Both the position numbers and the translations under genes were made by a program. From Deltaproteobacteria bacterium (GTDB lineage: Bacteria > Desulfobacterota > Desulfovibrionia > Desulfovibrionales > Desulfovibrionaceae), in NCBI GenBank assembly GCA_031280335.1, contig JAITGZ010000041.1, positions 1-40,279 on the forward strand: a DNA stretch of 40,279 nt, given 5' to 3'. A model generated the notes under the pieces. It was not told the origin of the DNA and ran no database searches. It saw only the letters and a list, made by a program, of their open reading frames with translations. Of this stretch, positions 902 to 37,630 are shown one piece after another (the first letter of the stretch is position 1; each line of letters begins with the position of its first letter).

Positions 902-1010
902 ACAATGCGGCGGTGCAGCTCTGAAGGGCTTCATGTCTTGCACCCCGCCCTTCAGGACGGGATCGGGCTATTTCCGGCAAGGCCGGGGTCTCAGACCACA
1001 AAGGAACAGG
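902..1010 (+). repeat. GC-rich structured leader element, copy A (homologue at 32170-32330)
   Basis: A GC-rich ~109-nt block sits between two AT-rich genes. It aligns with 32170-32330 along its length (caatgcgg..gtg..cttcagggcttca.gtcttgc.ccccgcc..cttcagg.cggg..gctat.tccgg). Both copies end in an identical 28-nt core, aaggccggggtctcagaccacaaaggaa (979-1006), 4 nt before the ATG at 1011. Confidence 0.6.
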
Positions 1011-1499
1011 ATGAAGTCCTTTGTTGCCATAGATTTTGAAACCGCCAATCAACACCGCAGTATTTGCAGTGTGGGCGTTGTTATTGTAGATAACGGAATA
1101 ATTACCGACAAGTTTTATGAATTGGTCAAGCCAGAACCTAATTTTTTCTGTGGTTGGGCTACAGACTGCCATGGTTTAAGCAAAGCGGACACGGAAAATG
1201 CTAAAATATTCCCGGAAGTTTGGGCCCAAATAGCCGGTAAAATAAAGGGATTTGCCTTGGTTGCTCATAACAGTCCCTTTGACGAGGGCTGTTTAAAGAC
1301 AAATCACGCATTATACGACATGGAATATCCCAACTATCAATTCTACTGCACTTTACAAAAAGCAAGACAGGTAATACCGAACTTGCCCAATTATCAATTG
1401 CACACCGTTTCAGAATATTTAGGATTTAAGCTGGATAATCATCACCACGCGTTGGCCGATGCCGAAGCGTGCGCTTATATTGCAATGAAAATATTTTAA
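1011..1499 (+). CDS. DEDDh-type 3'-5' exonuclease (DnaQ/epsilon-like, stand-alone)
   Basis: The ATG at 1011 is preceded by AAAGGAA. The ~162-aa product carries three exonuclease motifs: FVAIDFETAN (ExoI), AHNSPFDEGCL (ExoII) and HHALADAEACAYI (ExoIII, DEDDh). The 876 start in the ORF track reads through the GC-rich element and is unlikely. Confidence 0.85.
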   Translation: MKSFVAIDFETANQHRSICSVGVVIVDNGIITDKFYELVKPEPNFFCGWATDCHGLSKADTENAKIFPEVWAQIAGKIKGFALVAHNSPFDEGCLKTNHALYDMEYPNYQFYCTLQKARQVIPNLPNYQLHTVSEYLGFKLDNHHHALADAEACAYIAMKIF

Positions 1500-1531: not shown

Positions 1532-2119
1532 TTATAACGAGGCGGATTCCGGCACCGCTTCCTCGCAGGCGCGCATGGCCAGCAGGGTTTTTTCCATGAG
1601 AACTTCCAGTTCCCAGCCCAGCATGGCCGCGCCATTTTCTATCACCTCTCTGGAGCAGCCCGCCGCGAAATTTATGGTCTTGTATTTTTTCTTCAAAGAT
1701 TTCACTTCCATATCCTGAACGCTTTTGGAGGGGCGCATGAGGGCGGCCGCGCCGATGAGACCGGTCAGTTCGTCCACCGCGTACAGCACTTTTTCCATTT
1801 CATGCTCCGGCCTGACCTCCGCCGTCAGGCCGTAGCCGTGGCTGCACACCGCGTGAATCAGGGCCTCGCCCGCGCCGGCCGGGCGCAAAATTTCGGGCGC
1901 TTTGCGGCAATGCTCCTGCGGAAAACGCTCAAAATCCACATCGTGCAACAGACCGGCGAGGGCCCAAAAATCCTGATCCTCCGCGTAGCCCAGCTCCACC
2001 GCGAACCAGCGCATGACCCCCTCCAAAATCAGGGCATGGCGTAAATGAAATTCTTCCTGGTTATAGGCGCGTAATAATTCCCAGGCTTTATCCCGCGTCA
2101 GTTCAGTGCGCATGGTCAT
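1532..2119 (-). CDS. HD-domain phosphohydrolase-like protein (possible independent translation start inside the hemA reading frame)
   Basis: AAGGAG followed by 3 nt (TTT) and an ATG (2119) lies within the open frame. The product MTMRTELTRDKAWELL... contains LAGLLHDVD (HD motif) and a second His cluster, HAVCSHGYG. Confidence 0.45.
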   Translation of the reverse strand: MTMRTELTRDKAWELLRAYNQEEFHLRHALILEGVMRWFAVELGYAEDQDFWALAGLLHDVDFERFPQEHCRKAPEILRPAGAGEALIHAVCSHGYGLTAEVRPEHEMEKVLYAVDELTGLIGAAALMRPSKSVQDMEVKSLKKKYKTINFAAGCSREVIENGAAMLGWELEVLMEKTLLAMRACEEAVPESASL

Positions 2120-3511
2120 AAACTCCTTTCGGTCGGCCGCGTGAGCGCCGTATCCTGTTTTGCGCCGGATGATCTTAGAGACGGTCTCGTGCCGTTTGTG
2201 GCGGCCATGCACAAGCTCCGCCGTCCTTTCCTCATCCAGGCCGAAAAGCCGGCGTACCATGTCGGCATACTGCGCGCCGCCTTCGTCTTCGGCCAATTTT
2301 TTTAGAAAAACTATGGGTTTATGATTGATCTTTTTGACAATGGCTTCCAGCATCTGTTCCAATGCCTGGGTTTCTTTGAGGCCCAGCTCCAGCCGCCGTG
2401 AGGTACGCGCCCATTCTTCGCGTATGATGCGCTCTGAATGTTGCAGCAAGGCCACAATGGTGGGCTGCACCTCCAGCGCCTCCAGCCAGCGGCGGAACTT
2501 GCGCGTCTCCTCCTCCACAATATCCGCGGCCTTTACGGCCTCTTCGCGCCGTTGGGCCAGATTCTCCTCCACCACTTCCTTGAGATCGTCTATGTCGTAG
2601 AGGTATATGTTGTCCAGACTGTTCACGCCGGGATCAATGTCACGCGGCACGGCGATGTCAATGAAAAACATGGGGCGGTTTTTGCGTTTTTTCATCACCC
2701 CGGCCATGTCTTCCGCCCGGATGATCGCCTCGGACGCGCCGGTGGAGCTGATGACAATATCCACTTCCGGCAGGTAGTTGACCAATTCTTCAAAAGGCAC
2801 ATCCCTTCCGCCGTAGCGCGCGGCCAGTTCCACCGCCCTTGCCCGGGTGCGGTTGGCCACCAGGATGGATTTAATGCCCGCGTTCATCAGGTGGGTGGCG
2901 GACAACTCAGCCATTTCACCCGCTCCTATGAGCATGGCCTGATAAGATGACATATCGCCGAAAATGCGCTTGGCCAACTCCACCGCCGCATAGCTCACGG
3001 AGACGGCGGCGGCGGCCACCCCGGTTTCACTGCGCACCCTTTTGGCCGCATAAAAGGCGTGATGCAGCAGACGGTTCAGGATCGTCCCGGTACTGCCCGA
3101 CTCCAGGGCGTTTTTATAGGCATCCTTAAGCTGCCCTAGAATCTGCGGTTCGCCCAGAATCATGGAATCCAGACTGGAGGCCACTGAAAACAGGTGACGC
3201 ACCGCCTCATCTTCTTGGCGTACATAGACAAAAGGGCGCAAATCTTCCGTCTTGCCGCCCCTGGCGGCAGCCCAGATGGCAAGGAGCGTTTCCGCCAGTT
3301 CATCGCCTTTGCCCGCAGCCAGTATTTCCACCCGGTTGCAGGTGGAAAGCGCCATGACTTCGCGAATGGGAGATGAAGCGCGTTTTTCAGCGCCAACGGG
3401 CAAAAAAAGGGTGTTTTCCAAAAAATCAGAGCCGGCCAGGGCAAAGGTTTCGCGCGTTTCCACCCCGGCAGTGCGGTGGTTCAAACCAACCAGGCAAAGG
3501 CCTTTGCCCAT
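1532..3511 (-). CDS. hemA: glutamyl-tRNA reductase (HemA) continuing in frame, without a stop codon, into a C-terminal HD-domain module
   Basis: The ATG at 3511 lies 2 nt after the stop of the upstream gene and starts MGKGLCLVGLNHRTAGVETRE. Other HemA marks are the active-site STCNRVEI and the NADPH fold LIGAGEMAEL. The longer track ORF (3733) overlaps the upstream gene. The HemA-like part is ~464 aa, then the frame stays open for another 195 aa down to 1532. Confidence 0.85.
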   Translation of the reverse strand: MGKGLCLVGLNHRTAGVETRETFALAGSDFLENTLFLPVGAEKRASSPIREVMALSTCNRVEILAAGKGDELAETLLAIWAAARGGKTEDLRPFVYVRQEDEAVRHLFSVASSLDSMILGEPQILGQLKDAYKNALESGSTGTILNRLLHHAFYAAKRVRSETGVAAAAVSVSYAAVELAKRIFGDMSSYQAMLIGAGEMAELSATHLMNAGIKSILVANRTRARAVELAARYGGRDVPFEELVNYLPEVDIVISSTGASEAIIRAEDMAGVMKKRKNRPMFFIDIAVPRDIDPGVNSLDNIYLYDIDDLKEVVEENLAQRREEAVKAADIVEEETRKFRRWLEALEVQPTIVALLQHSERIIREEWARTSRRLELGLKETQALEQMLEAIVKKINHKPIVFLKKLAEDEGGAQYADMVRRLFGLDEERTAELVHGRHKRHETVSKIIRRKTGYGAHAADRKEFMTMRTELTRDKAWELLRAYNQEEFHLRHALILEGVMRWFAVELGYAEDQDFWALAGLLHDVDFERFPQEHCRKAPEILRPAGAGEALIHAVCSHGYGLTAEVRPEHEMEKVLYAVDELTGLIGAAALMRPSKSVQDMEVKSLKKKYKTINFAAGCSREVIENGAAMLGWELEVLMEKTLLAMRACEEAVPESASL

Positions 3512-3513
3512 GG

Positions 3514-4353
3514 TCAAATCACCGCCGCCGCGCTGAAACCGTGGCGGGTGGGCATAAATAGATTCACCCCCAGGAGCGAGAACAAAGATATGCTGAAGAT
3601 GGCTATGAGCAGCAGGGCCGCCTTGCGTCCACGCCAGCCGCGCACGATCCGGAGGTAAAAGGTAACGGCGTATAAAAACCAGACAAAGAGCGAAAAAATT
3701 TCTTTGGGGTCCCATCCGCCGCTGCCGCTCCATACTTGGGGCGCCCAGATAAAACCCGCGGCTATGCCCAAGGTGTACAAAGGAAAGCCGAAGATCACCG
3801 CCAGATGGTTAAGGCGGTCATAAACGCCCAGGGCAGGCAGTTCGCGGTCAAATTCCGTAAACTTGGCCTTGGATTTAAGTTTGCGATCCATATGCAAAAA
3901 AAGCAGGGCCGCCCCAAAGGCCAGGGCCAGCAGCCCCAGGCTGGCGTATAGGGGACCTATGTGCAGGATGATGAAAAGCTCCTTCAATGCCCCGGGCATT
4001 TCCACCTGAGCCCCATCGGATTTGCAGAAAGCCAAAATAAAAAGCAGCAGGGCCAGGGGTGAGGCGGTTACGGAAATGAAGCCGGATTTAAGCACCTTCC
4101 AACCCGCAAAATAGGCCAGGAGTATGCTCCAGGCCAACAGTTGCAAAAAATGGCCGCGCGAGAGGTCCTCCGGAGGAGTGAGCAGGATGACGCCCATCGC
4201 CAGCAGGGTGTGCAGGGCTAAGCCGGCCCAGGTGGACATGGCACCCATAAGCCTGACCCGCGCTTTGGAGGCGGATATGCCCCAAAAAACGCCGGCGCTG
4301 CCCAGGGCGTACAGCAGGATGACCAGGGTGGACAGAACATTAGTAAAGGCCAT
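3514..4353 (-). CDS. cytochrome c assembly family membrane protein (CcsA/HemX-like)
   Basis: Polytopic hydrophobic product with a W-rich segment (WAPQVWSGSGGWDPKE) typical of CcsA/HemX-type proteins. It sits between sirC and hemA, as in hemA-hemX operons. The ATG at 4353 has GAGGA 8 nt upstream; the track start at 4368 is a TTG. Confidence 0.7.
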   Translation of the reverse strand: MAFTNVLSTLVILLYALGSAGVFWGISASKARVRLMGAMSTWAGLALHTLLAMGVILLTPPEDLSRGHFLQLLAWSILLAYFAGWKVLKSGFISVTASPLALLLFILAFCKSDGAQVEMPGALKELFIILHIGPLYASLGLLALAFGAALLFLHMDRKLKSKAKFTEFDRELPALGVYDRLNHLAVIFGFPLYTLGIAAGFIWAPQVWSGSGGWDPKEIFSLFVWFLYAVTFYLRIVRGWRGRKAALLLIAIFSISLFSLLGVNLFMPTRHGFSAAAVI

Positions 4354-5020
4354 GCAGTAAATCCTCAATATGCTTATGCAGGGTTTCGGGCAGAATCTCC
4401 CGCAAAATACGCCCCGCCGCCGCGCCGTCTTTACGCCTCAAAGCCGCCCCCAGCCCGGAACCGGCCACGGCCCGGAACAAATCCCTGTTGCTTCCGGCAT
4501 CATTCCCTTCAGCCAGGGCAGGCTGACGCAGGCGCCCCAGCAGCAGCAGCAAAGGCCGGTAATGCTCCGCATACCAGGCTTGCAGTTCCCGCCGCATGAT
4601 CCGGGCCAAGGCGGGGCTTTGCCCTCCGGTGGACAGGGCCAGGGCAAAAGCGCCGTCATGAAAATGGGAGGGCACTATAAAATCACCCTCTTCCGGCGCG
4701 TCCGCCACATTGCAGGGTATGCCGCGCTCCCGGCAGAACAGGGCCAGACGGTGGTTGGCCCCGGCGGAGCCGGAGGCCGCGAACACCAAAGCGCAGCCCT
4801 CGGCATCTTCCGGCACCGCCTCGCGCCGCGCATACTCCACCGCCGGGTGGAGACGCAGGGCCTCAGGCAAATCCCTGGCGTCCACCGCCGGATCCAGCCA
4901 TAACAGACTTGCGGGGCCAGCCGCAAGGATATCGCCCGCCTTGCGCCGCCCCACTTCGCCGGCCCCGGCCAAAAGCACCCGCGCCCGGCTCAAATCCAAA
5001 AACAAAGGGTAATAACGCAT
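4340..5020 (-). CDS. sirC: precorrin-2 dehydrogenase / sirohydrochlorin ferrochelatase (siroheme synthase N-terminal domain type)
   Basis: N-terminus MRYYPLFLDLSRARVLLAGAGEVGRRKA matches the CysG-N/SirC Rossmann signature. It is the first gene of the hemA cluster and overlaps the next gene. Confidence 0.8.
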   Translation of the reverse strand: MRYYPLFLDLSRARVLLAGAGEVGRRKAGDILAAGPASLLWLDPAVDARDLPEALRLHPAVEYARREAVPEDAEGCALVFAASGSAGANHRLALFCRERGIPCNVADAPEEGDFIVPSHFHDGAFALALSTGGQSPALARIMRRELQAWYAEHYRPLLLLLGRLRQPALAEGNDAGSNRDLFRAVAGSGLGAALRRKDGAAAGRILREILPETLHKHIEDLLHGLY

Positions 5021-5085
5021 GCGCCTTTATATACCCGGACGGACGCCTTGTAAAATATGAGCAATCTATTGAAATACCACATCTA

Positions 5086-5229
5086 AGGAAACACTGATTA
5101 ATTCGGGGATCCGCCCCGAACCCCGCTGGGGGAATAAGAAAGGGGCATGTTCACCCAGGCGTTGCTTTACCTCTGCCATCCATCTGCACAACGGCAAAGC
5201 ACCCTCAAGAGAATAAATCAGCGTTTCCT
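5086..5229. mobile_element. MITE-like element, copy 1 (~144 bp, imperfect terminal inverted repeats, TA flanks)
   Basis: The ends aggaaacactgattaattc / gaataaatcagcgtttcct are imperfect inverted repeats. TA lies on both sides (5084-5085 and 5230-5231). Near-identical copies are at 21964-22195 and 31760-31904. Confidence 0.75.
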
Positions 5230-5318
5230 TAAAAACAGGCAGCTTCACCTCCCAAATTCGTTCTATCGCAATGTGGCTTTTCGTGCTATGTCTCACGGCG
5301 TGAGGGGAGGCGTGGGCA

Positions 5319-5993
5319 ATGAACCAAGAGAACCGCGATGCTCAGGGACGCCCCGTGCGGGACAGAGCATTGCCTTTTGTGAAGGCGTTCTTTCCTGCGG
5401 CGCGGGCGTTCAGCGTGCCGGACAAGGAGGCGGGAGATATTCCGGACCGGGAAGCTTGCGCGGCTTTATGGGATAAATACGCCATGCCCGCGCATATCCG
5501 CGCCCATTCCCGTCAAGTGGCCATGATTGTGGAGCATTTGGAGGGGTTTGTGCGTGCTGCGGGCATCAGGCTGGACCCTGCCTTGCTTATGGCCGGGGCG
5601 CTTCTGCATGACATCGCCAAGGCCTACACCATAAGCTTCGGCGGCAACCACGCCCAGTTGGGCGCGGCCTGGATGGCGCGTGAGGGTATAAGCCCTCGTG
5701 CGGCCCAGATGATTCTGCACCACGTACACTGGCCCTGGCAACTGGATATACGCAATGAAAGCATGCTGCCCAGCCTGATTCTGGTTTACGCGGACAAGCG
5801 GGTGCTGCATGACGCGGTGGTCGGTCTGGAAGAACGCTTTAAAGACCTGACCCGGCGTTACGGACATACGGAACGGATACGCATGTTCATCGCCTCGTCC
5901 ATGGCCCAGGGGCGAGACCTGGAGCATTTGTTATCTGAACTTTCGGGAGTGCGGCTGGATGAATATTCTTTTGATTGCGGGCGGCTGGTCTGA
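5319..5993 (+). CDS. HD-domain protein
   Basis: 224-aa ORF with GGGAGG upstream of the ATG. It contains ALLHDIAKAY (HD motif) and HHVHWPW. It overlaps the ddl start by 35 nt, suggesting co-transcription. Confidence 0.75.
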   Translation: MNQENRDAQGRPVRDRALPFVKAFFPAARAFSVPDKEAGDIPDREACAALWDKYAMPAHIRAHSRQVAMIVEHLEGFVRAAGIRLDPALLMAGALLHDIAKAYTISFGGNHAQLGAAWMAREGISPRAAQMILHHVHWPWQLDIRNESMLPSLILVYADKRVLHDAVVGLEERFKDLTRRYGHTERIRMFIASSMAQGRDLEHLLSELSGVRLDEYSFDCGRLV

Positions 5994-9306: not shown

Positions 9307-9363
9307 TGATTTTCAACCGTGTTTTTCCGCCGCCTCACGGTGTAAAAAATGAAAAGAAGAGAT

Positions 9364-9486
9364 AAGGGCAATTTTATTTTGAAATTGCCTTAAAAATATT
9401 GAGGGGGTTGGAGGGAAATCATTTCCCCCAAATGGGGTTTGGGACGATAGCCCCAATAAAAGATATGCAGGCTCAAAGTTGAAATA
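9364..9486. repeat. modular hairpin repeat (family 2), copy A
   Basis: About 120 bp, nearly identical to 37511-37630. Modules: ggcaatttt-atttt-gaaattgcc hairpin, gagggaaatcatttccccc palindrome, tgggacgatagcccca hairpin. Confidence 0.8.
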
Positions 9487-21963: not shown

Positions 21964-22195
21964 GAGGAAACACTGATTAATTCGGGGCTTCGCCCCGAAC
22001 CCCGCTGGGGGGAATAAGAAAGGGGCATGTTCGCCCAGGCGCAGCCTTATCCTTGCGCTATCCGTTAGGGTGCCTTGCCGCCTAAGGGATAGCGCAAGGG
22101 GGCAAAAGGGGCATGTTTGCCCAGGCGTTGCTTTACCTCTGCCATCCCTCTGCACAACGGCAAGGCACCCTCAAGAGAATAAATCAGCGTTTCCC
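21964..22195. mobile_element. MITE-like element, copy 2, carrying a nested ~86-bp insertion
   Basis: It has the same ends as copies 1 and 3 and TA on both sides (21962-21963, 22196-22197). The internal extra segment (about 22041-22126) has a perfect 12-bp stem, cttgcgctatcc...ggatagcgcaag, and duplicates aaaggggcatgtt.gcccaggcg. Confidence 0.75.
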
Positions 22196-23256
22196 TAAAT
22201 CTTATTGGTTTTGATGTATTCGCGGGCCTTGGTCACTTCCTCGATATACATTTCATAAACCGGCGGGAAGCGCTTGTCGGTTTTGAGCCATCCCTGCACT
22301 GCCGAATCCAGGGCTTTTTTCCATTCCGCAGCCAGGGTTTCGTCCAGATCGATGTTGGTGGAGCGGGGGTCGGCGCGCTCGCGTTTTTCCACGCCGGCGT
22401 TAAAATCATCCCATTCCTTGGAATAGGTGATGCCAAGTTCCAGGCCGCTGTGCTTGAGCAGAATGTCCTTGGCCGCTGCCGGCAGTTTGTCGAAGGAGCG
22501 TTTGCTGATGACAATGGGGAAGAGGTTGGTGCCGAAGGGAATATAGGTGTGGCACTTAGCCACATCCACCACGCGGAAGGTCTCCATGCCCTGCCATTCT
22601 CCCACCGTACCCTGCATGACGTTGCGGCTGATGTTTTCCGCGACTTTGGAGATGCTTTCGGCCACCGGGGTGCCGCCTGCCGCCAGGATTAGGTCCTGCT
22701 GCATCTTGCCGGCGGTGCGGATTTTCAGCCCGGCCATATCCTTGGGGCTGCGCACAGGTTTGATGGTGTGCAGAAAGTACTGGGCCTGGGCGTTCATGCT
22801 CAGGGGAATAATGTCGCGCCAGCCGCTGAACGCGTTTTTCAAGTACATGTTGTGTACGGCAATGGTGGCTTCCAGCATGTTGTAGGCCACAAAGGGCACA
22901 TTGGTCACTGTGGCTTCGGGGAACCGCCCCGGCGTGTAGGGTACGCTGGCCCCCAGGGTGATGTCGGCCACGCCGTCGATGATCATCTTGAGCTGCTGGG
23001 TGGGGTCGGGGCCAAGCTGTCCGTTGGGGTAGAAGTCGATTTTAAGCACCCCTTCCCCGGCCTGGTTGATTTTGTTGATCCAAGGGATGAGTACCTTGAC
23101 CGGGGAAAAAGCCTGCGCCGGTTCATAGGTGCCGAACTTCAGCACTGTGGGCGCGGCTTGGGCCCTGCGCAGCACTGCGGGAAAACCGATGGACGCCGCA
23201 GCCAAACCGCCGACGGCAATGCCTTTGAGAAATTTACGCCTGGTGTAAGTAGTCAT
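22195..23256 (-). CDS. dctP: TRAP transporter substrate-binding protein (DctP family) with twin-arginine-type signal peptide
   Basis: The ATG at 23256 has GGAGG 7 nt upstream. The product starts MTTYTRRKFLKGIAVGGLAAASIGFPAVLRRAQA. The DctP fold includes GLKIRTAG, the position of the conserved carboxylate-binding Arg in the family. Confidence 0.85.
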   Translation of the reverse strand: MTTYTRRKFLKGIAVGGLAAASIGFPAVLRRAQAAPTVLKFGTYEPAQAFSPVKVLIPWINKINQAGEGVLKIDFYPNGQLGPDPTQQLKMIIDGVADITLGASVPYTPGRFPEATVTNVPFVAYNMLEATIAVHNMYLKNAFSGWRDIIPLSMNAQAQYFLHTIKPVRSPKDMAGLKIRTAGKMQQDLILAAGGTPVAESISKVAENISRNVMQGTVGEWQGMETFRVVDVAKCHTYIPFGTNLFPIVISKRSFDKLPAAAKDILLKHSGLELGITYSKEWDDFNAGVEKRERADPRSTNIDLDETLAAEWKKALDSAVQGWLKTDKRFPPVYEMYIEEVTKAREYIKTNKI

Positions 23257-26994: not shown

Positions 26995-27210
26995 CCGCCT
27001 TGAAAGCATTTTAAATTTGGGGCTATCGCCCCAAACCCCATCCGGGGGGAATCATTCCCCCCGGACCCCCTCTACATTGAGTCAAAGTTTAGGGTGCCGA
27101 GCAGGGTGCCTTAAAGTTAATATGCTCCAAACCCGCCATTCGTGGGGGAATGATTCCCCCACGAAACACCGCGTTCTTTTTTCAGCCGTCTTGCGGCTGA
27201 AAAAACGTGT
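26995..27210. repeat. cluster of family-2 hairpin repeats filling the E1alpha-E1beta intergenic gap
   Basis: Modules present: ttggggctatcgccccaa, ggggggaatcattcccccc, gtgggggaatgattcccccac and the 16-bp-stem hairpin ttttttcagccg-tcttg-cggctgaaaaaa. The first part is the reverse complement of the 9364/37511 copies. Confidence 0.8.
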
Positions 27211-31760: not shown

Positions 31761-31904
31761 GGAAACACTGATTAATTCGGGGCTCCGCCCTGAACCCCGC
31801 TGGGGGGAATAAGAAAGGGGCATGTTCGCCCATGCGTTGCTTTACCTCTGCCATCCCTCTGCACAACGGCAAGGCACCCTCAAGAGAATAAATCAGCGTT
31901 TCCT
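31760..31904. mobile_element. MITE-like element, copy 3
   Basis: Same sequence family as 5086-5229, with TA flanks at 31758-31759 and 31905-31906. The left TA is part of the Fe-ADH TAG stop, and the right TA is part of the TAA of the minus-strand fragment. Confidence 0.75.
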
Positions 31905-32173
31905 TAGGTGTTTAGTCCCACATTGCGCAGAGGCATCCACAGGGAGCTGTATTTTTTCCCGAACGGCGTTCCCTCATGGGCGGCCACAGCCACGGCCATG
32001 ACCCAGATGAACAGCGCGGAAATCACGGCCAGCGCCACCAGATTGAAGGCGCTGAACATTTCCAGCATGAGTTCCGCTGCCTGAGGGCCGCCAAGCCCTT
32101 CGCCCCAGGTATCCCACCCCTGTCCGAGCAGGGCGTCCAGGAATTGCTTACCGGCGTCGGTTTGCAGAAGCAA
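31904..32173 (-). pseudogene. DotA/TraY-like (type IVB conjugation) gene fragment
   Basis: The 89-aa ORF contains MFSAFNLVALAVISALFIWVMAVAVAAHEGTPFGKKYSSLWMPLRNVG. This resembles the conserved MFGVFN...TAHEGE.LGKRWSS.W.PLR block of DotA/TraY proteins (recalled from memory). These proteins are many hundreds of aa long, so this is only an internal fragment. Confidence 0.4.
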
Positions 32174-32330
32174 TGCGGTAGTGAAGCCCTTCAGGGCTTC
32201 ACGTCTTGCGCCCCGCCGGGGTTTGCGTCCCCGGCCAAGCTTCCGCCCGGAAGGAAACCACGCCCTTCAGGGCGGGGCCTTGCTATATCCGGCCTGAAGG
32301 CCGGGGTCTCAGACCACAAAGGAATAGAAG
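32170..32330 (+). repeat. GC-rich structured leader element, copy B (with a 45-nt internal insertion)
   Basis: It aligns with 902-1010. Structures: perfect 9-bp stem gtgaagccc-ttca-gggcttcac (32181-32202), hairpins ccgggg..ccccgg, cttcc-gccc-ggaag, gccc-ttca-gggc and ccggcc-tgaa-ggccgg. The identical 28-nt core at 32297-32324 lies 6 nt before an ATG (32331). Confidence 0.6.
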
Positions 32331-32390
32331 ATGATTTCCAATATTGCGGGAATTTCAGCGGCCATAGCGTTTTCTCCGGTTACGTTTCAC

Positions 32391-32418
32391 TTGACATGGT
32401 GCCCGTTTGAGCTACAAT
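32391..32418 (+). promoter_or_regulatory. sigma-70-type promoter for dinJ-yafQ
   Basis: TTGACA (32391-32396), a 16-bp spacer, then TACAAT (32413-32418). It lies ~24 nt upstream of the AAGGAGG RBS and the ATG at 32442. Confidence 0.6.
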
Positions 32419-32441: not shown

Positions 32442-32699
32442 ATGCCCGCAAACGATTATGTCCGCGCCAGGATTGATCCCGCGATTAAAAATGAAGCCGC
32501 CTGTGTGCTGTCCACTCTTGGGCTGACCGTTTCCGATGCCTGCCGTATGATGCTGACGAAAATAGCTAGGGAAAAACGACTGCCTTTCGGTACAGAAGAG
32601 CCGAACGAGGAATCGCTGGCCGCAATCAGGGAAATCGAAGAAGGCAAAGGAGTGCGGTTTCATTCCGCCGAAGCGCTGTTTGAGGATTTGGGGATATAG
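32442..32699 (+). CDS. dinJ: type II antitoxin DinJ (RelB/DinJ family)
   Basis: 85 aa. MPANDYVRARIDPAIKNEAACVLSTLGLTVSDACRMMLTKIAREKRLPF closely parallels E. coli DinJ (FVRARIDEDLKNQAADVL...LTKVAREKALPF). Confidence 0.9.
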   Translation: MPANDYVRARIDPAIKNEAACVLSTLGLTVSDACRMMLTKIAREKRLPFGTEEPNEESLAAIREIEEGKGVRFHSAEALFEDLGI

Positions 32700-32702
32700 C
32701 GT

Positions 32703-32975
32703 ATGCGCAATCCTGTCCGCTCCAGCCACTTTAAGCGGGATGTAAAAAAAGCGGAGCAACGCGGCAAGCACATGAATAAACTGCGTGTCGTGCTTGCTCT
32801 GTTGATTCAGGAACAGCCTTTGCCCCAGGCATACCAGGACCATCCGCTGAAAGGCCTCTGGAAAGGACATCGTGGAGCGCACATTGAACCGGATTGGATT
32901 TTGGTTTACCGCATTGACGGCCAAGACCTGCATTTGACCCGTACCGGCACTCATGCCGACATATTTTCTATCTGA
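32703..32975 (+). CDS. yafQ: type II toxin YafQ (RelE/ParE superfamily mRNA interferase)
   Basis: 90 aa. HPLKGLWKGHRGAHIEPDWILVYRIDGQDLHLTRTGTHADIF parallels E. coli YafQ (HPLQGSWKGYRDAHVEPDWILIYK...RTGTHAALF). It starts 3 nt after the dinJ stop. Confidence 0.9.
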   Translation: MRNPVRSSHFKRDVKKAEQRGKHMNKLRVVLALLIQEQPLPQAYQDHPLKGLWKGHRGAHIEPDWILVYRIDGQDLHLTRTGTHADIFSI

Positions 32976-33977: not shown

Positions 33978-34017
<40 letters not shown>

Positions 34018-36425: not shown

Positions 36426-36440
36426 ATGTTTTTGTGTCCT

Positions 36441-36520
36441 TTTGGATTTGGAGCTATAGCTCCAAAGCCCATCCGGGGGAATGATTTACCCGGACCCCTT
36501 CACCGGTGATGGGCTTTTTC
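36441..36520. repeat. family-2 hairpin repeat between nadE and acpS
   Basis: tttggagctatagctccaaa hairpin followed by ccgggggaatgatttacccgg. It is related to 27017-27070. Confidence 0.65.
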
Positions 36521-37405: not shown

Positions 37406-37510
37406 GGGCTGTGTCCGTGGCTGGAAGGTTCAGGCTGAGGCCGAAAGTATAGAATTATTTTCACATGGAAGCAAGTTATGCCTTTCAGGAGCCATCCTGT
37501 TGATGAACTT

Positions 37511-37630
37511 AAGGCAATTTCATTTTGAAATTGCCTCAAAAATATTGAGGGGGTTTGGGGGAAATCATTTCCCCCAAATGGGGTTTGGGGCGATAGCCCC
37601 AACAAAAGATATGGATCTCAAAGTTGAATA
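37511..37630. repeat. modular hairpin repeat (family 2), copy B
   Basis: Nearly identical to 9364-9486. Modules: ggcaatttc-atttt-gaaattgcc, gggggaaatcatttccccc, ttggggc-gata-gccccaa. Confidence 0.8.

Follow-up and report, generated by a model that had tools for sequence, protein, structure and literature searches.

A Dispersed Family of Small, Hairpin-Rich Repeats Bordered by ATGA in Termite-Gut Desulfovibrio, with Features of REP and IS200/IS605-Like Mobile Elements

Introduction

Insertion sequences of the IS200/IS605 family lack inverted ends, generate no target duplication, insert at a fixed tetranucleotide and carry subterminal hairpins (PMC3333891, PMC10055086). REPs are marked by GTAG on the 5′ side of a palindrome's foot, a signature that RAYTs recognize (PMC3333891, PMC3733652). 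The MIRUs, as summarized in PMC12548453 with reference to Supply et al. (1997), are small intergenic repeats reported to insert at start codons such that their own reading frame overlaps the gene by −4 (ATGA), which limits the effect on expression. Little has been documented on how hairpin repeats that lack inverted ends, REP-like ones included, come to spread, and exact filled and empty alleles with a defined target are seldom available for them. The family described here offers both. It was encountered as two copies, A and B, in a Desulfovibrio-like stretch of DNA of 40,279 nt (57.6% GC), referred to below as the window.

Results

Two Copies of the Repeat in the Window

An earlier note on this DNA, made from the sequence alone, had described positions 902–1010 and 32170–32330 as two copies of one GC-rich, structured element. 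Both stretches are present as claimed, approximately 31.3 kb apart and in direct orientation, and a MAFFT alignment joins them end to end, the sole break being a block of approximately 50 nt (32213–32260) that contributes two extra hairpins to copy B and is absent from copy A. The 28-nt core, AAGGCCGGGGTCTCAGACCACAAAGGAA, is identical in both copies (979–1006 and 32297–32324) and occurs nowhere else in the window, with two exact occurrences observed versus zero expected from 100 shuffles. The core includes both the palindrome GGTCTCAGACC and the Shine-Dalgarno (SD)-like motif AAAGGAA, and it is separated from an ATG by 4 nt in copy A (ATG at 1011) and by 6 nt in copy B (ATG at 32331). The hairpin CCGGC-AAG-GCCGG of copy A and its counterpart CCGGCC-TGAA-GGCCGG of copy B are likewise real, the loop being altered and the pairing retained.

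The two copies have GC contents of 62% (copy A) and 64% (copy B), and the genes next to copy A have GC contents of 35% and 41%, in line with the contrast first reported. The location of copy A between these foreign-looking genes fits a host-resident element that inserted after they had been acquired. The description of the element as structured stands for copy B, which folds better than shuffled sequences (z = −3.9), but not for copy A (z = 0.08); one copy from a metagenome-assembled genome (MAG) introduced below, at locus L004, reaches z = −5.95. Copy A is a degenerate, decayed copy without the two middle hairpins; at 80% identity, the metagenome yields no relatives of its 5′ third. The two copies and their surroundings comprise the following features.

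104–898: AT-rich open reading frame of no recognized identity, upstream of copy A
902–1010, plus strand: copy A, 109 nt, degenerate, 5′ boundary uncertain by 0–4 nt (nhmmer E = 3e-26)
979–1006, plus strand: 28-nt core of copy A, an exact match comprising the 3′ half of hairpin H5, hairpin H6 and the SD-like motif
987–997, plus strand: H6 of copy A, GGTCTCAGACC, within the core
1000–1006, plus strand: SD-like AAAGGAA of copy A, within the core
1011–1014, plus strand: ATGA after copy A, its ATG being the start of an RNase_T-type 3′-5′ exonuclease gene
1011–1499, plus strand: RNase_T-type exonuclease gene (Pfam RNase_T over residues 5–157 of the 162-residue product)
32170–32330, plus strand: copy B, 161 nt, full length, both ends fixed by an empty site (nhmmer E = 1.5e-49)
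32331–32334, plus strand: ATGA after copy B, a pre-existing target that is also present in the empty site
32391–32418: near-consensus relB promoter (11/12 match)
32442: start of relB (85-residue product, Pfam RelB match from residue 4)

Two direct copies separated by 31.3 kb could reflect a segmental duplication, or the attL and attR repeats of a 31-kb island. The interval between them is, however, core metabolism, encoding glutamyl-tRNA reductase (hemA), D-Ala-D-Ala ligase (ddl), asparaginyl-tRNA synthetase (asnS), a TRAP transporter, the E1 and E2 components of a pyruvate-dehydrogenase-type (PDH) complex and similar housekeeping functions. There is no integrase signature, and no tRNA or tmRNA that could serve as an integration target is found in the window. 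An island with att repeats was ruled out on the basis of the housekeeping interval and the missing tRNA. Many more copies in two lineages, and related strains that lack copy B alone and retain both of its flanks, speak against either version, and this reading is given virtually no chance. An integron attC site was rejected as well; GTTRRRY-type ends are absent, and copies lie at core genes. The window also holds a TIR-MITE, at 5087–5231, 21966–22197 and 31761–31906.

Family Size and Distribution

In a search of 185,579 species genomes, a 21-mer of the core is found at four loci, all of them in the termite-gut MAG Desulfovibrio sp. Pc512_bin87 (loci L001–L004). A further full copy in L003, detected with nhmmer, brings the count to six copies in 32 kb of the MAG. 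The window and the MAG loci are both represented in the termite-gut metagenome run X1, the source metagenome of the window, and define a window-type and a MAG-type form of the element. In X1, the window-type element has a depth of approximately 1000–1850 with flanks at 10–34, and the MAG-type element has a depth of 2300–5700 with flanks at 9.5–12, giving element-to-flank ratios of 30–500. The number of contigs on the element is 96–211, and many of these are variants with the middle shortened or skipped. Because these values are assembler word depths summed over the metagenome, they convey copies per genome as an order of magnitude only, and they place the copy number in termite-gut Desulfovibrio roughly on the order of 100 or more. 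The density in the window, two copies per 40 kb, fits this figure.

The element thus belongs to a dispersed family of small, GC-rich, hairpin-rich repeats, and a two-copy duplication, the outcome that the earlier note had tied to an absence of further copies, is excluded. The core 20-mer has no match in JGI metagenome contigs or in viral contigs, the 5′ hairpin pattern has none in metagenome contigs, and blastn with copy B finds nothing among 72,556 plasmids and 50,697 phages. The concatenated six-frame translation of the element matches none of 5.8 billion proteins, and an exact protein look-up for the same loci in other assemblies returned nothing. A literature search with the core sequence retrieved only an unrelated primer, and searches by subject retrieved nothing on Desulfovibrio repeats of such kind. 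The family is previously undescribed, in that it is present in no paper or database entry searched.

Filled and Empty Alleles of Copy B

Contigs of runs X1, X4, X5 and X6 contain an empty site for copy B, which reads …GGTTTGCAGA|ATGATTTCC… (also quoted as …GGCGTCGGTTTGCAGA|ATGATTTCC…), with GCAGAA as the left-hand bases. These contigs match the window up to 32169 and again from 32331, so that the insert corresponds exactly to 32170–32330, or 161 bp. Comparison of the filled allele, GCAGAA(161 bp)ATGATTTCC, with the empty allele, GCAGAA|ATGATTTCC, shows no duplicated junction bases at this one locus, copy B. A 2-bp AT duplication considered for the MAG subtype (AT…CTG|AT) was dropped in view of the empty site of copy B, which is without duplication. 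Both alleles of copy B occur within X1 and constitute a presence/absence polymorphism in a single metagenome population. The element is, or recently was, mobile, and its spread is recent, as judged by this polymorphism and by the near-identity of copies. Runs X1, X5, X6 and X7 show no empty sites for the dnaE and aroA/tyrA copies of the MAG.

The ATGA Junction

ATGA directly follows eight of the nine copies read, and the ninth, at L002, is followed by ACGA. Beyond the copies read, eight independent window-type contigs diverge from one another right after ATGA, and two sets of MAG-type contigs (15 and 13, independent) do so right after ATGA(A), for a total of approximately 36. At the other end, 15 and 11 MAG-type contigs diverge right before ATCC. 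Past both divergence points the consensus is random (agreement 0.4–0.48 beyond the ATCC end), such that a fixed tetranucleotide is present on one side only. ATGA, which reads TCAT on the other strand, has a background frequency of approximately 8 per kb over both strands. Since the empty site of copy B already contains it, ATGA is a pre-existing target that lies outside the element.

The relationship of the junction to gene starts differs from copy to copy. Start codons are proven at three of the seven fully readable copies, namely those at the exonuclease gene, dnaE and tyrA; by our own estimate, approximately 5% of ATGA sites would be expected to be start codons. In L001, the ATG after the element is the true start of dnaE, with the PHP domain beginning at residue 6. 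In L004, excision of the element in silico restores …GCATGAAC…, containing GCATGA, in which the stop codon of aroA overlaps the start codon of tyrA. Copy B, the L003 copy after secG and the short L003 copy are not at proven start codons. Copy B is located upstream of the relB/yafQ pair; since relB has its own promoter and begins downstream of it, at 32442, the ATG at 32331 does not serve as a genuine start codon. The short L003 copy interrupts another repeated open reading frame; at the junction, homologues of this frame in X5 and X7 have the sequence GTG|ATGAGG. This site has been rearranged, as the downstream DNA does not continue the interrupted frame. Each of the seven readable copies has an adjacent gene in the same orientation. 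The view that the repeats lie in accessory DNA holds for copies A and B only; others are found at core genes (dnaE, aroA/tyrA and secG).

Anatomy of the Element

Read from the 5′ end, full-length copy B consists of a short head, a 5′ module, a variable middle module and a conserved 3′ end, with hairpins numbered H1–H6.

32173–32184, plus strand: mini-frame ATG-CGG-TAG-TGA of the window-type head, which supplies stop codons, just 5′ of the 5′ module
32178–32205, plus strand: 5′ module, GTAG, hairpin H1 and CGTC (from the fold)
32178–32181, plus strand: GTAG, directly 5′ of the foot of H1
within 32178–32205, plus strand: H1, TGAAGCCC-TTCA-GGGCTTCA, with a closing G-C pair at 32181–32202
32215–32253, plus strand: variable middle module, H2 (GCCGGGG…CCCCGGC) and H3 (CTTCCG-CC-CGGAAG)
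32261–32274, plus strand: H4, CGCCC-TTCA-GGGCG, with an apex, GCCCTTCAGGGC, identical to that of H1
32289–32315, plus strand: H5 (CCGGCC-TGAA-GGCCGG) and H6 (GGTC-TCA-GACC)
32318–32324, plus strand: SD-like AAAGGAA, the last conserved motif, 6 nt before ATG

H1 has the stem GAAGCCC and the loop TTCA, and a single compensatory change, from C-G to U-A, preserves its stem between the two lineages. GGTAG together with the H1 stem is found in copy B, in both L003 copies and in L004; the corresponding bases are CTAG in L001 and GCGG in copy A. The middle module is missing in copy A, and the MAG copies differ from copy B there in sequence yet still form a hairpin; H2 and H3 thus differ between lineages with pairing kept. 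In many metagenome variants this module is shortened or skipped, with skips of 94–109 nt, and the minimal form of 58 nt (the short L003 copy) is made up of the two ends only, so that element sizes range across copies from approximately 58 to 170 nt. The loop of H5 varies (AAG, TGAA or TTTC) on a retained stem. With approximately five informative sequences, the conservation of hairpins between lineages is suggestive only and does not separate a constraint on DNA from one on RNA.

The ends of the element are not related to each other by inversion. The 5′ ends (GCAATGCGGTAG… in the one form and ATCCAAATGAGGTAG… in the other) bear no relation to the reverse complements of the 3′ ends (CTTCTATTCCTTTG… and CAGAACTTCCTTTG…), and there are therefore no terminal inverted repeats. 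The palindromes are instead subterminal, with H1 beginning 12–15 nt from one end and H6 and H5 approximately 16 nt from the other. The MAG subtype can be written as ATCCAAATGAGGTAG-(hairpins)-GGGGTCTCAGACCACAAAGGAAGTTCTG.

At the 3′ end, the order is ACAAAGGAA, a stretch of 5–7 nt and the target ATG. AAAGGA is complementary to the 3′ end of 16S rRNA, and its distance to the ATG is 5 nt in copy A and 7 nt in copy B and the MAG copies. The motif AAAGGAA is invariant in nine of nine copies read, and because this includes the copies away from gene starts, it is part of the element. The opposite end carries stop codons. The MAG-type head, AAATGAGGTAG, has TGA and TAG in two different frames, and TTC-TGA-TGA, which overlaps the ATG, closes the third incoming frame of the MAG subtype. 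Copy B closes two of its three incoming frames and leaves one open. In both lineages, one frame of the element ends in a TGA that overlaps the ATG.

Regulatory and RNA Readings of the Structured DNA

A structured element that adjoins an SD-like motif and an ATG, and retains some pairing through sequence change, could be a cis-regulatory RNA, that is, a riboswitch or leader in the 5′ UTR of the following genes. A gathering-threshold Rfam scan of the whole window gives no match, and in a permissive scan of copy B the best score is 21.8 bits, below a threshold of 51. No pathway unites what follows the copies, which ranges from an exonuclease, dnaE, tyrA and a permease to an absence of genes; one copy is located within another repeated open reading frame, the middle of the element is dispensable, and the same locus occurs with and without the element in a family on the order of 100 or more copies. 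A riboswitch or leader is accordingly highly improbable and, for practical purposes, excluded.

The remaining proposals of the earlier note were a portable promoter/5′-UTR cassette of a mobile element and a single-strand-active leading-region signal. Of its three candidates the cassette is the closest, in that the element is portable and presents an SD-like motif before start codons; it differs in that the element is itself the mobile unit, rather than part of a larger one, and contains no sigma-70-type promoter. As a portable promoter, or a leading-region promoter active on single strands, the element has nothing to recommend it beyond its position upstream of genes. No −35/−10 match is found in either copy, the context is chromosomal housekeeping DNA, which also disposes of a leading-region signal, and the plasmid and phage collections searched above hold no match; the chance that either promoter reading is correct is negligible.

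A further reading is that of a palindrome-associated element that also encodes an omega-RNA-like guide for a TnpB or IscB nuclease. IS200/IS605-derived mini-elements (PATEs) and guide RNAs encoded at an element end are known (PMC10055086), and one end of the present element is highly conserved, with 28 nt identical across two lineages. No gene for TnpB or IscB was found, however, and Rfam gives no omega-RNA-like match. Among RNA runs none matches the element, one metatranscriptome contig covering relB/yafQ only, and the conserved end abuts the target side rather than the side from which a guide would read into the flank under the IS605 convention. This reading is considered very unlikely.

Host Repeat or Mobile Repeat

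The GTAG-tagged H1, the high copy number, the GC-rich, stable stems and the location between co-directional genes match REPs (PMC3733652, PMC3333891), and a terminator-like site predicted within copy B on the minus strand would suit a REP/BIME-type structural repeat of the host. Such a repeat would have a mainly physiological role, in stabilization of mRNA 3′ ends, insulation of operon junctions or binding of nucleoid proteins; a RAYT would have dispersed it in the distant past, with the SD-like motif and the association with ATGA as by-products. The polymorphism within one metagenome population and the near-identical copies indicate recent spread instead. In addition, the unit is an asymmetric composite of 58–170 nt rather than a palindrome of 20–40 nt or a REP/iREP pair, and no strict ATGA junction is known for REPs. 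A primarily physiological role is thus unlikely.

Discussion

Proposed Mode of Transposition

The probable explanation is that copies A and B are non-autonomous, REP/IS200-IS605-like mobile elements that were placed 5′ of ATGA by an HUH-type, single-strand route. The absence of inverted ends and of a target duplication, the tetranucleotide on one side, the subterminal hairpins and the dispensable interior together point to HUH transposition directed by a tetranucleotide. An HUH-type enzyme encoded elsewhere in the genome, such as an IS200/IS605 TnpA, a RAYT or an IS91-type enzyme, would move the element in trans. An IS91-type enzyme shares the geometry of IS200/IS605. The enzyme would recognize the subterminal hairpins, one of which bears the REP-type GTAG tag, and transposition would take place on a single strand, acting on the strand that reads TCAT|….

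Some observations fit this scheme less well. No IS200-TnpA-like or RAYT-like open reading frame is detected in 72 kb (the window and L001–L004) by tblastn with approximate sequences of an IS200 TnpA and an E. coli RAYT as queries. On a naive reading, TCAT shows no obvious pairing with the 4 nt on the 5′ side of each terminal hairpin. The TCAT strand, which would be the active one under the IS200/IS605 convention, is the minus strand for copies A and B alike, and the GC skew of the window is positive throughout; for these two copies, this would be the opposite of the lagging-template bias reported for that family.

The choice of target may also account for the placement of the family. Very frequently, ATGA is a start codon with A after it, or the TGA/ATG overlap of stop and start codons inside an operon, and for that reason many of the copies that selection spares sit exactly at gene starts. 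With an SD-like AAAGGAA borne by the element 5–7 nt before the target ATG, the downstream gene would keep a ribosome-binding site, and the stop codons of the 5′ end would terminate the upstream gene. Survival at gene starts would then reflect selection combined with the element-borne motif and stop codons, and the family has probably spread with little harm to neighboring genes. Two findings fit this account less well: start codons are proven at only three of the seven readable copies, and the set of stops is complete only in the MAG subtype, with one frame open in copy B.

A stronger version, which is put forward tentatively and with rather more doubt than belief, holds that the repeat is a “start-codon-seeking” single-strand transposon. 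Directed to ATGA by an HUH enzyme, such an element would have evolved a portable ribosome-binding site and frame-closing stop codons, would cause no polar damage at essential genes such as dnaE and aroA/tyrA, and would for this reason have reached a copy number on the order of 100 or more. If the design holds, the repeat would be a selfish element that lowers its own cost by replacing the translation signals it displaces, and translation of dnaE would depend on an element-borne ribosome-binding site. Gene callers might extend or misplace starts at element sites, and MAG contigs would break at element repeats. If the design fails, the family would be one more lineage-restricted small repeat.

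Comparison with Known Systems

The proposed HUH-type mobile element would work in the manner of the PATEs of the IS200/IS605 family or of REPs. Like PATEs, it has no terminal inverted repeats, no target duplication, a precise empty site, a fixed tetranucleotide on one side, subterminal imperfect hairpins at both ends and a dispensable interior. Unlike PATEs, it has no cognate tnpA, and no full-length relative with matching ends that encodes a Y1 TnpA, in the 72 kb searched, and it carries an outward-facing SD-like motif. An ATGA/TCAT target was not found to be reported for the IS200/IS605 family in the literature searched, and the strand bias of the two window copies runs against the lagging-template rule. 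Several defining features of IS200/IS605 mini-elements and of REPs are present, but the decisive one, a cognate transposase, is not among them.

The similarity to REPs, BIMEs and REPINs resides in GTAG at the foot of a GC-rich imperfect palindrome with a stem of 8–9 bp and a loop of 4 nt, and in a high copy number and an intergenic location between co-directional genes (PMC3733652, PMC3333891). The mobile unit differs from all of these in that five or six different hairpins make up an asymmetric composite, with a strict ATGA junction. A REP is a single palindrome of 20–40 nt, usually with an inverted partner (iREP, CTAC), and no inverted copy of H1 with CTAC is found inside the element; the REP survey lists no Desulfovibrio family. 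Classical MITEs, including Correia, ERIC and the TIR-MITE of the window, are comparably small, non-autonomous, amplified and able to alter the expression of adjacent genes, but have the terminal inverted repeats and target-site duplications that this element lacks. The element falls outside the definitions of both the classical MITE and the REP/iREP pair.

The MIRUs of mycobacteria differ from the Desulfovibrio repeat in phylum and show no sequence similarity to it. They form tandem arrays of 46–101 bp with a translated internal open reading frame, in contrast to the hairpin-rich single copy per site observed here, in which an SD-like motif takes the place of the open reading frame; within the element, no ATG, GTG or TTG is present in the frame whose terminal TGA overlaps the ATG (L004 sequence). 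The two are alike in their placement at ATGA and start codons, and here too the TGA of one frame overlaps the ATG. By this analogy of placement, the mycobacterial MIRUs are the closest functional analogue of the family.

Genes near the two window copies

104-1499: AT-rich gene pair, a 264-aa ORF of unknown kind and an RNase_T-type exonuclease
1532-3733, minus strand: 733-aa ORF with HemA domains and a C-terminal region
31904-32173, minus strand: 89-aa ORF with a hydrophobic segment
32391-32975: relB/yafQ toxin-antitoxin pair (relB, 32442-32699; yafQ, 32703-32975)

Copy A of the GC-rich element is located exactly at the junction between the two AT-rich genes, which have GC contents of 35% and 41% compared with 58% for the genome and were probably acquired horizontally. 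In the neighboring 733-aa ORF, the glutamyl-tRNA reductase (HemA) domains are complete, and the C-terminal region gives a weak HD-domain match that falls under the cut-off (17.5 bits); this ORF could be a gene fusion or a read-through of two genes.

Copy B is adjoined by the 5′ end of the 89-aa ORF, for which no Pfam match was found. In related strains that lack the element at this site, the sequence runs on into …ATGATTTCC…, and insertion of the element may thus have severed the original start of the ORF. The relB/yafQ pair is preceded by a sigma-70-like promoter (32391-32418, 11/12 match), and one metatranscriptome contig (run X11) covers positions 32553-32762 within the pair.

Element copies in a termite-gut Desulfovibrio MAG

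L002, 7936-8000: element copy, directly followed by ACGA rather than ATGA
L003, 2042-2230: 58-nt minimal element copy and the ORF that it interrupts

The L002 locus terminates within its element copy. A short ORF precedes a gene for an ABC-type permease here, and the ACGA may be what mutation has left of the start codon of that ORF. The ORF interrupted in L003, which we take to resemble the N terminus of an IS630-type transposase, is itself repeated, with two variants in X1, the metagenome run from which the window derives, and homologues in runs X5 and X7; its 42-aa fragment has no Pfam match. The DNA past the 58-nt copy does not carry on the interrupted ORF, which suggests recombination between element copies at this site.

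Other repeats in the window

9356-9467 and 37502-37613; 27017-27078, reverse strand; 36440-36479, partial: third hairpin-repeat family, intergenic
33979-34015: perfect dinucleotide microsatellite, (TG)18.5
5087-5231, 21966-22197 and 31761-31906: classical MITE family

Small repeats are unusually abundant in this genome. The third hairpin-repeat family has the sequence GGCAATTTCATTTTGAAATTGCC … GGGGGAAATCATTTCCCCC … GGGGCGATAGCCCC. The MITE copies carry terminal inverted repeats of ~16 nt, GGAAACRCTGATTWAT and its complement, and are flanked by YTAR-like repeats (TTAG…TTAG at 31761-31906, with copy B following just 264 bp downstream); the copy at 21966-22197 contains an additional internal palindromic segment of ~86 nt. 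This MITE family is separate from and unrelated to the family of copies A and B.
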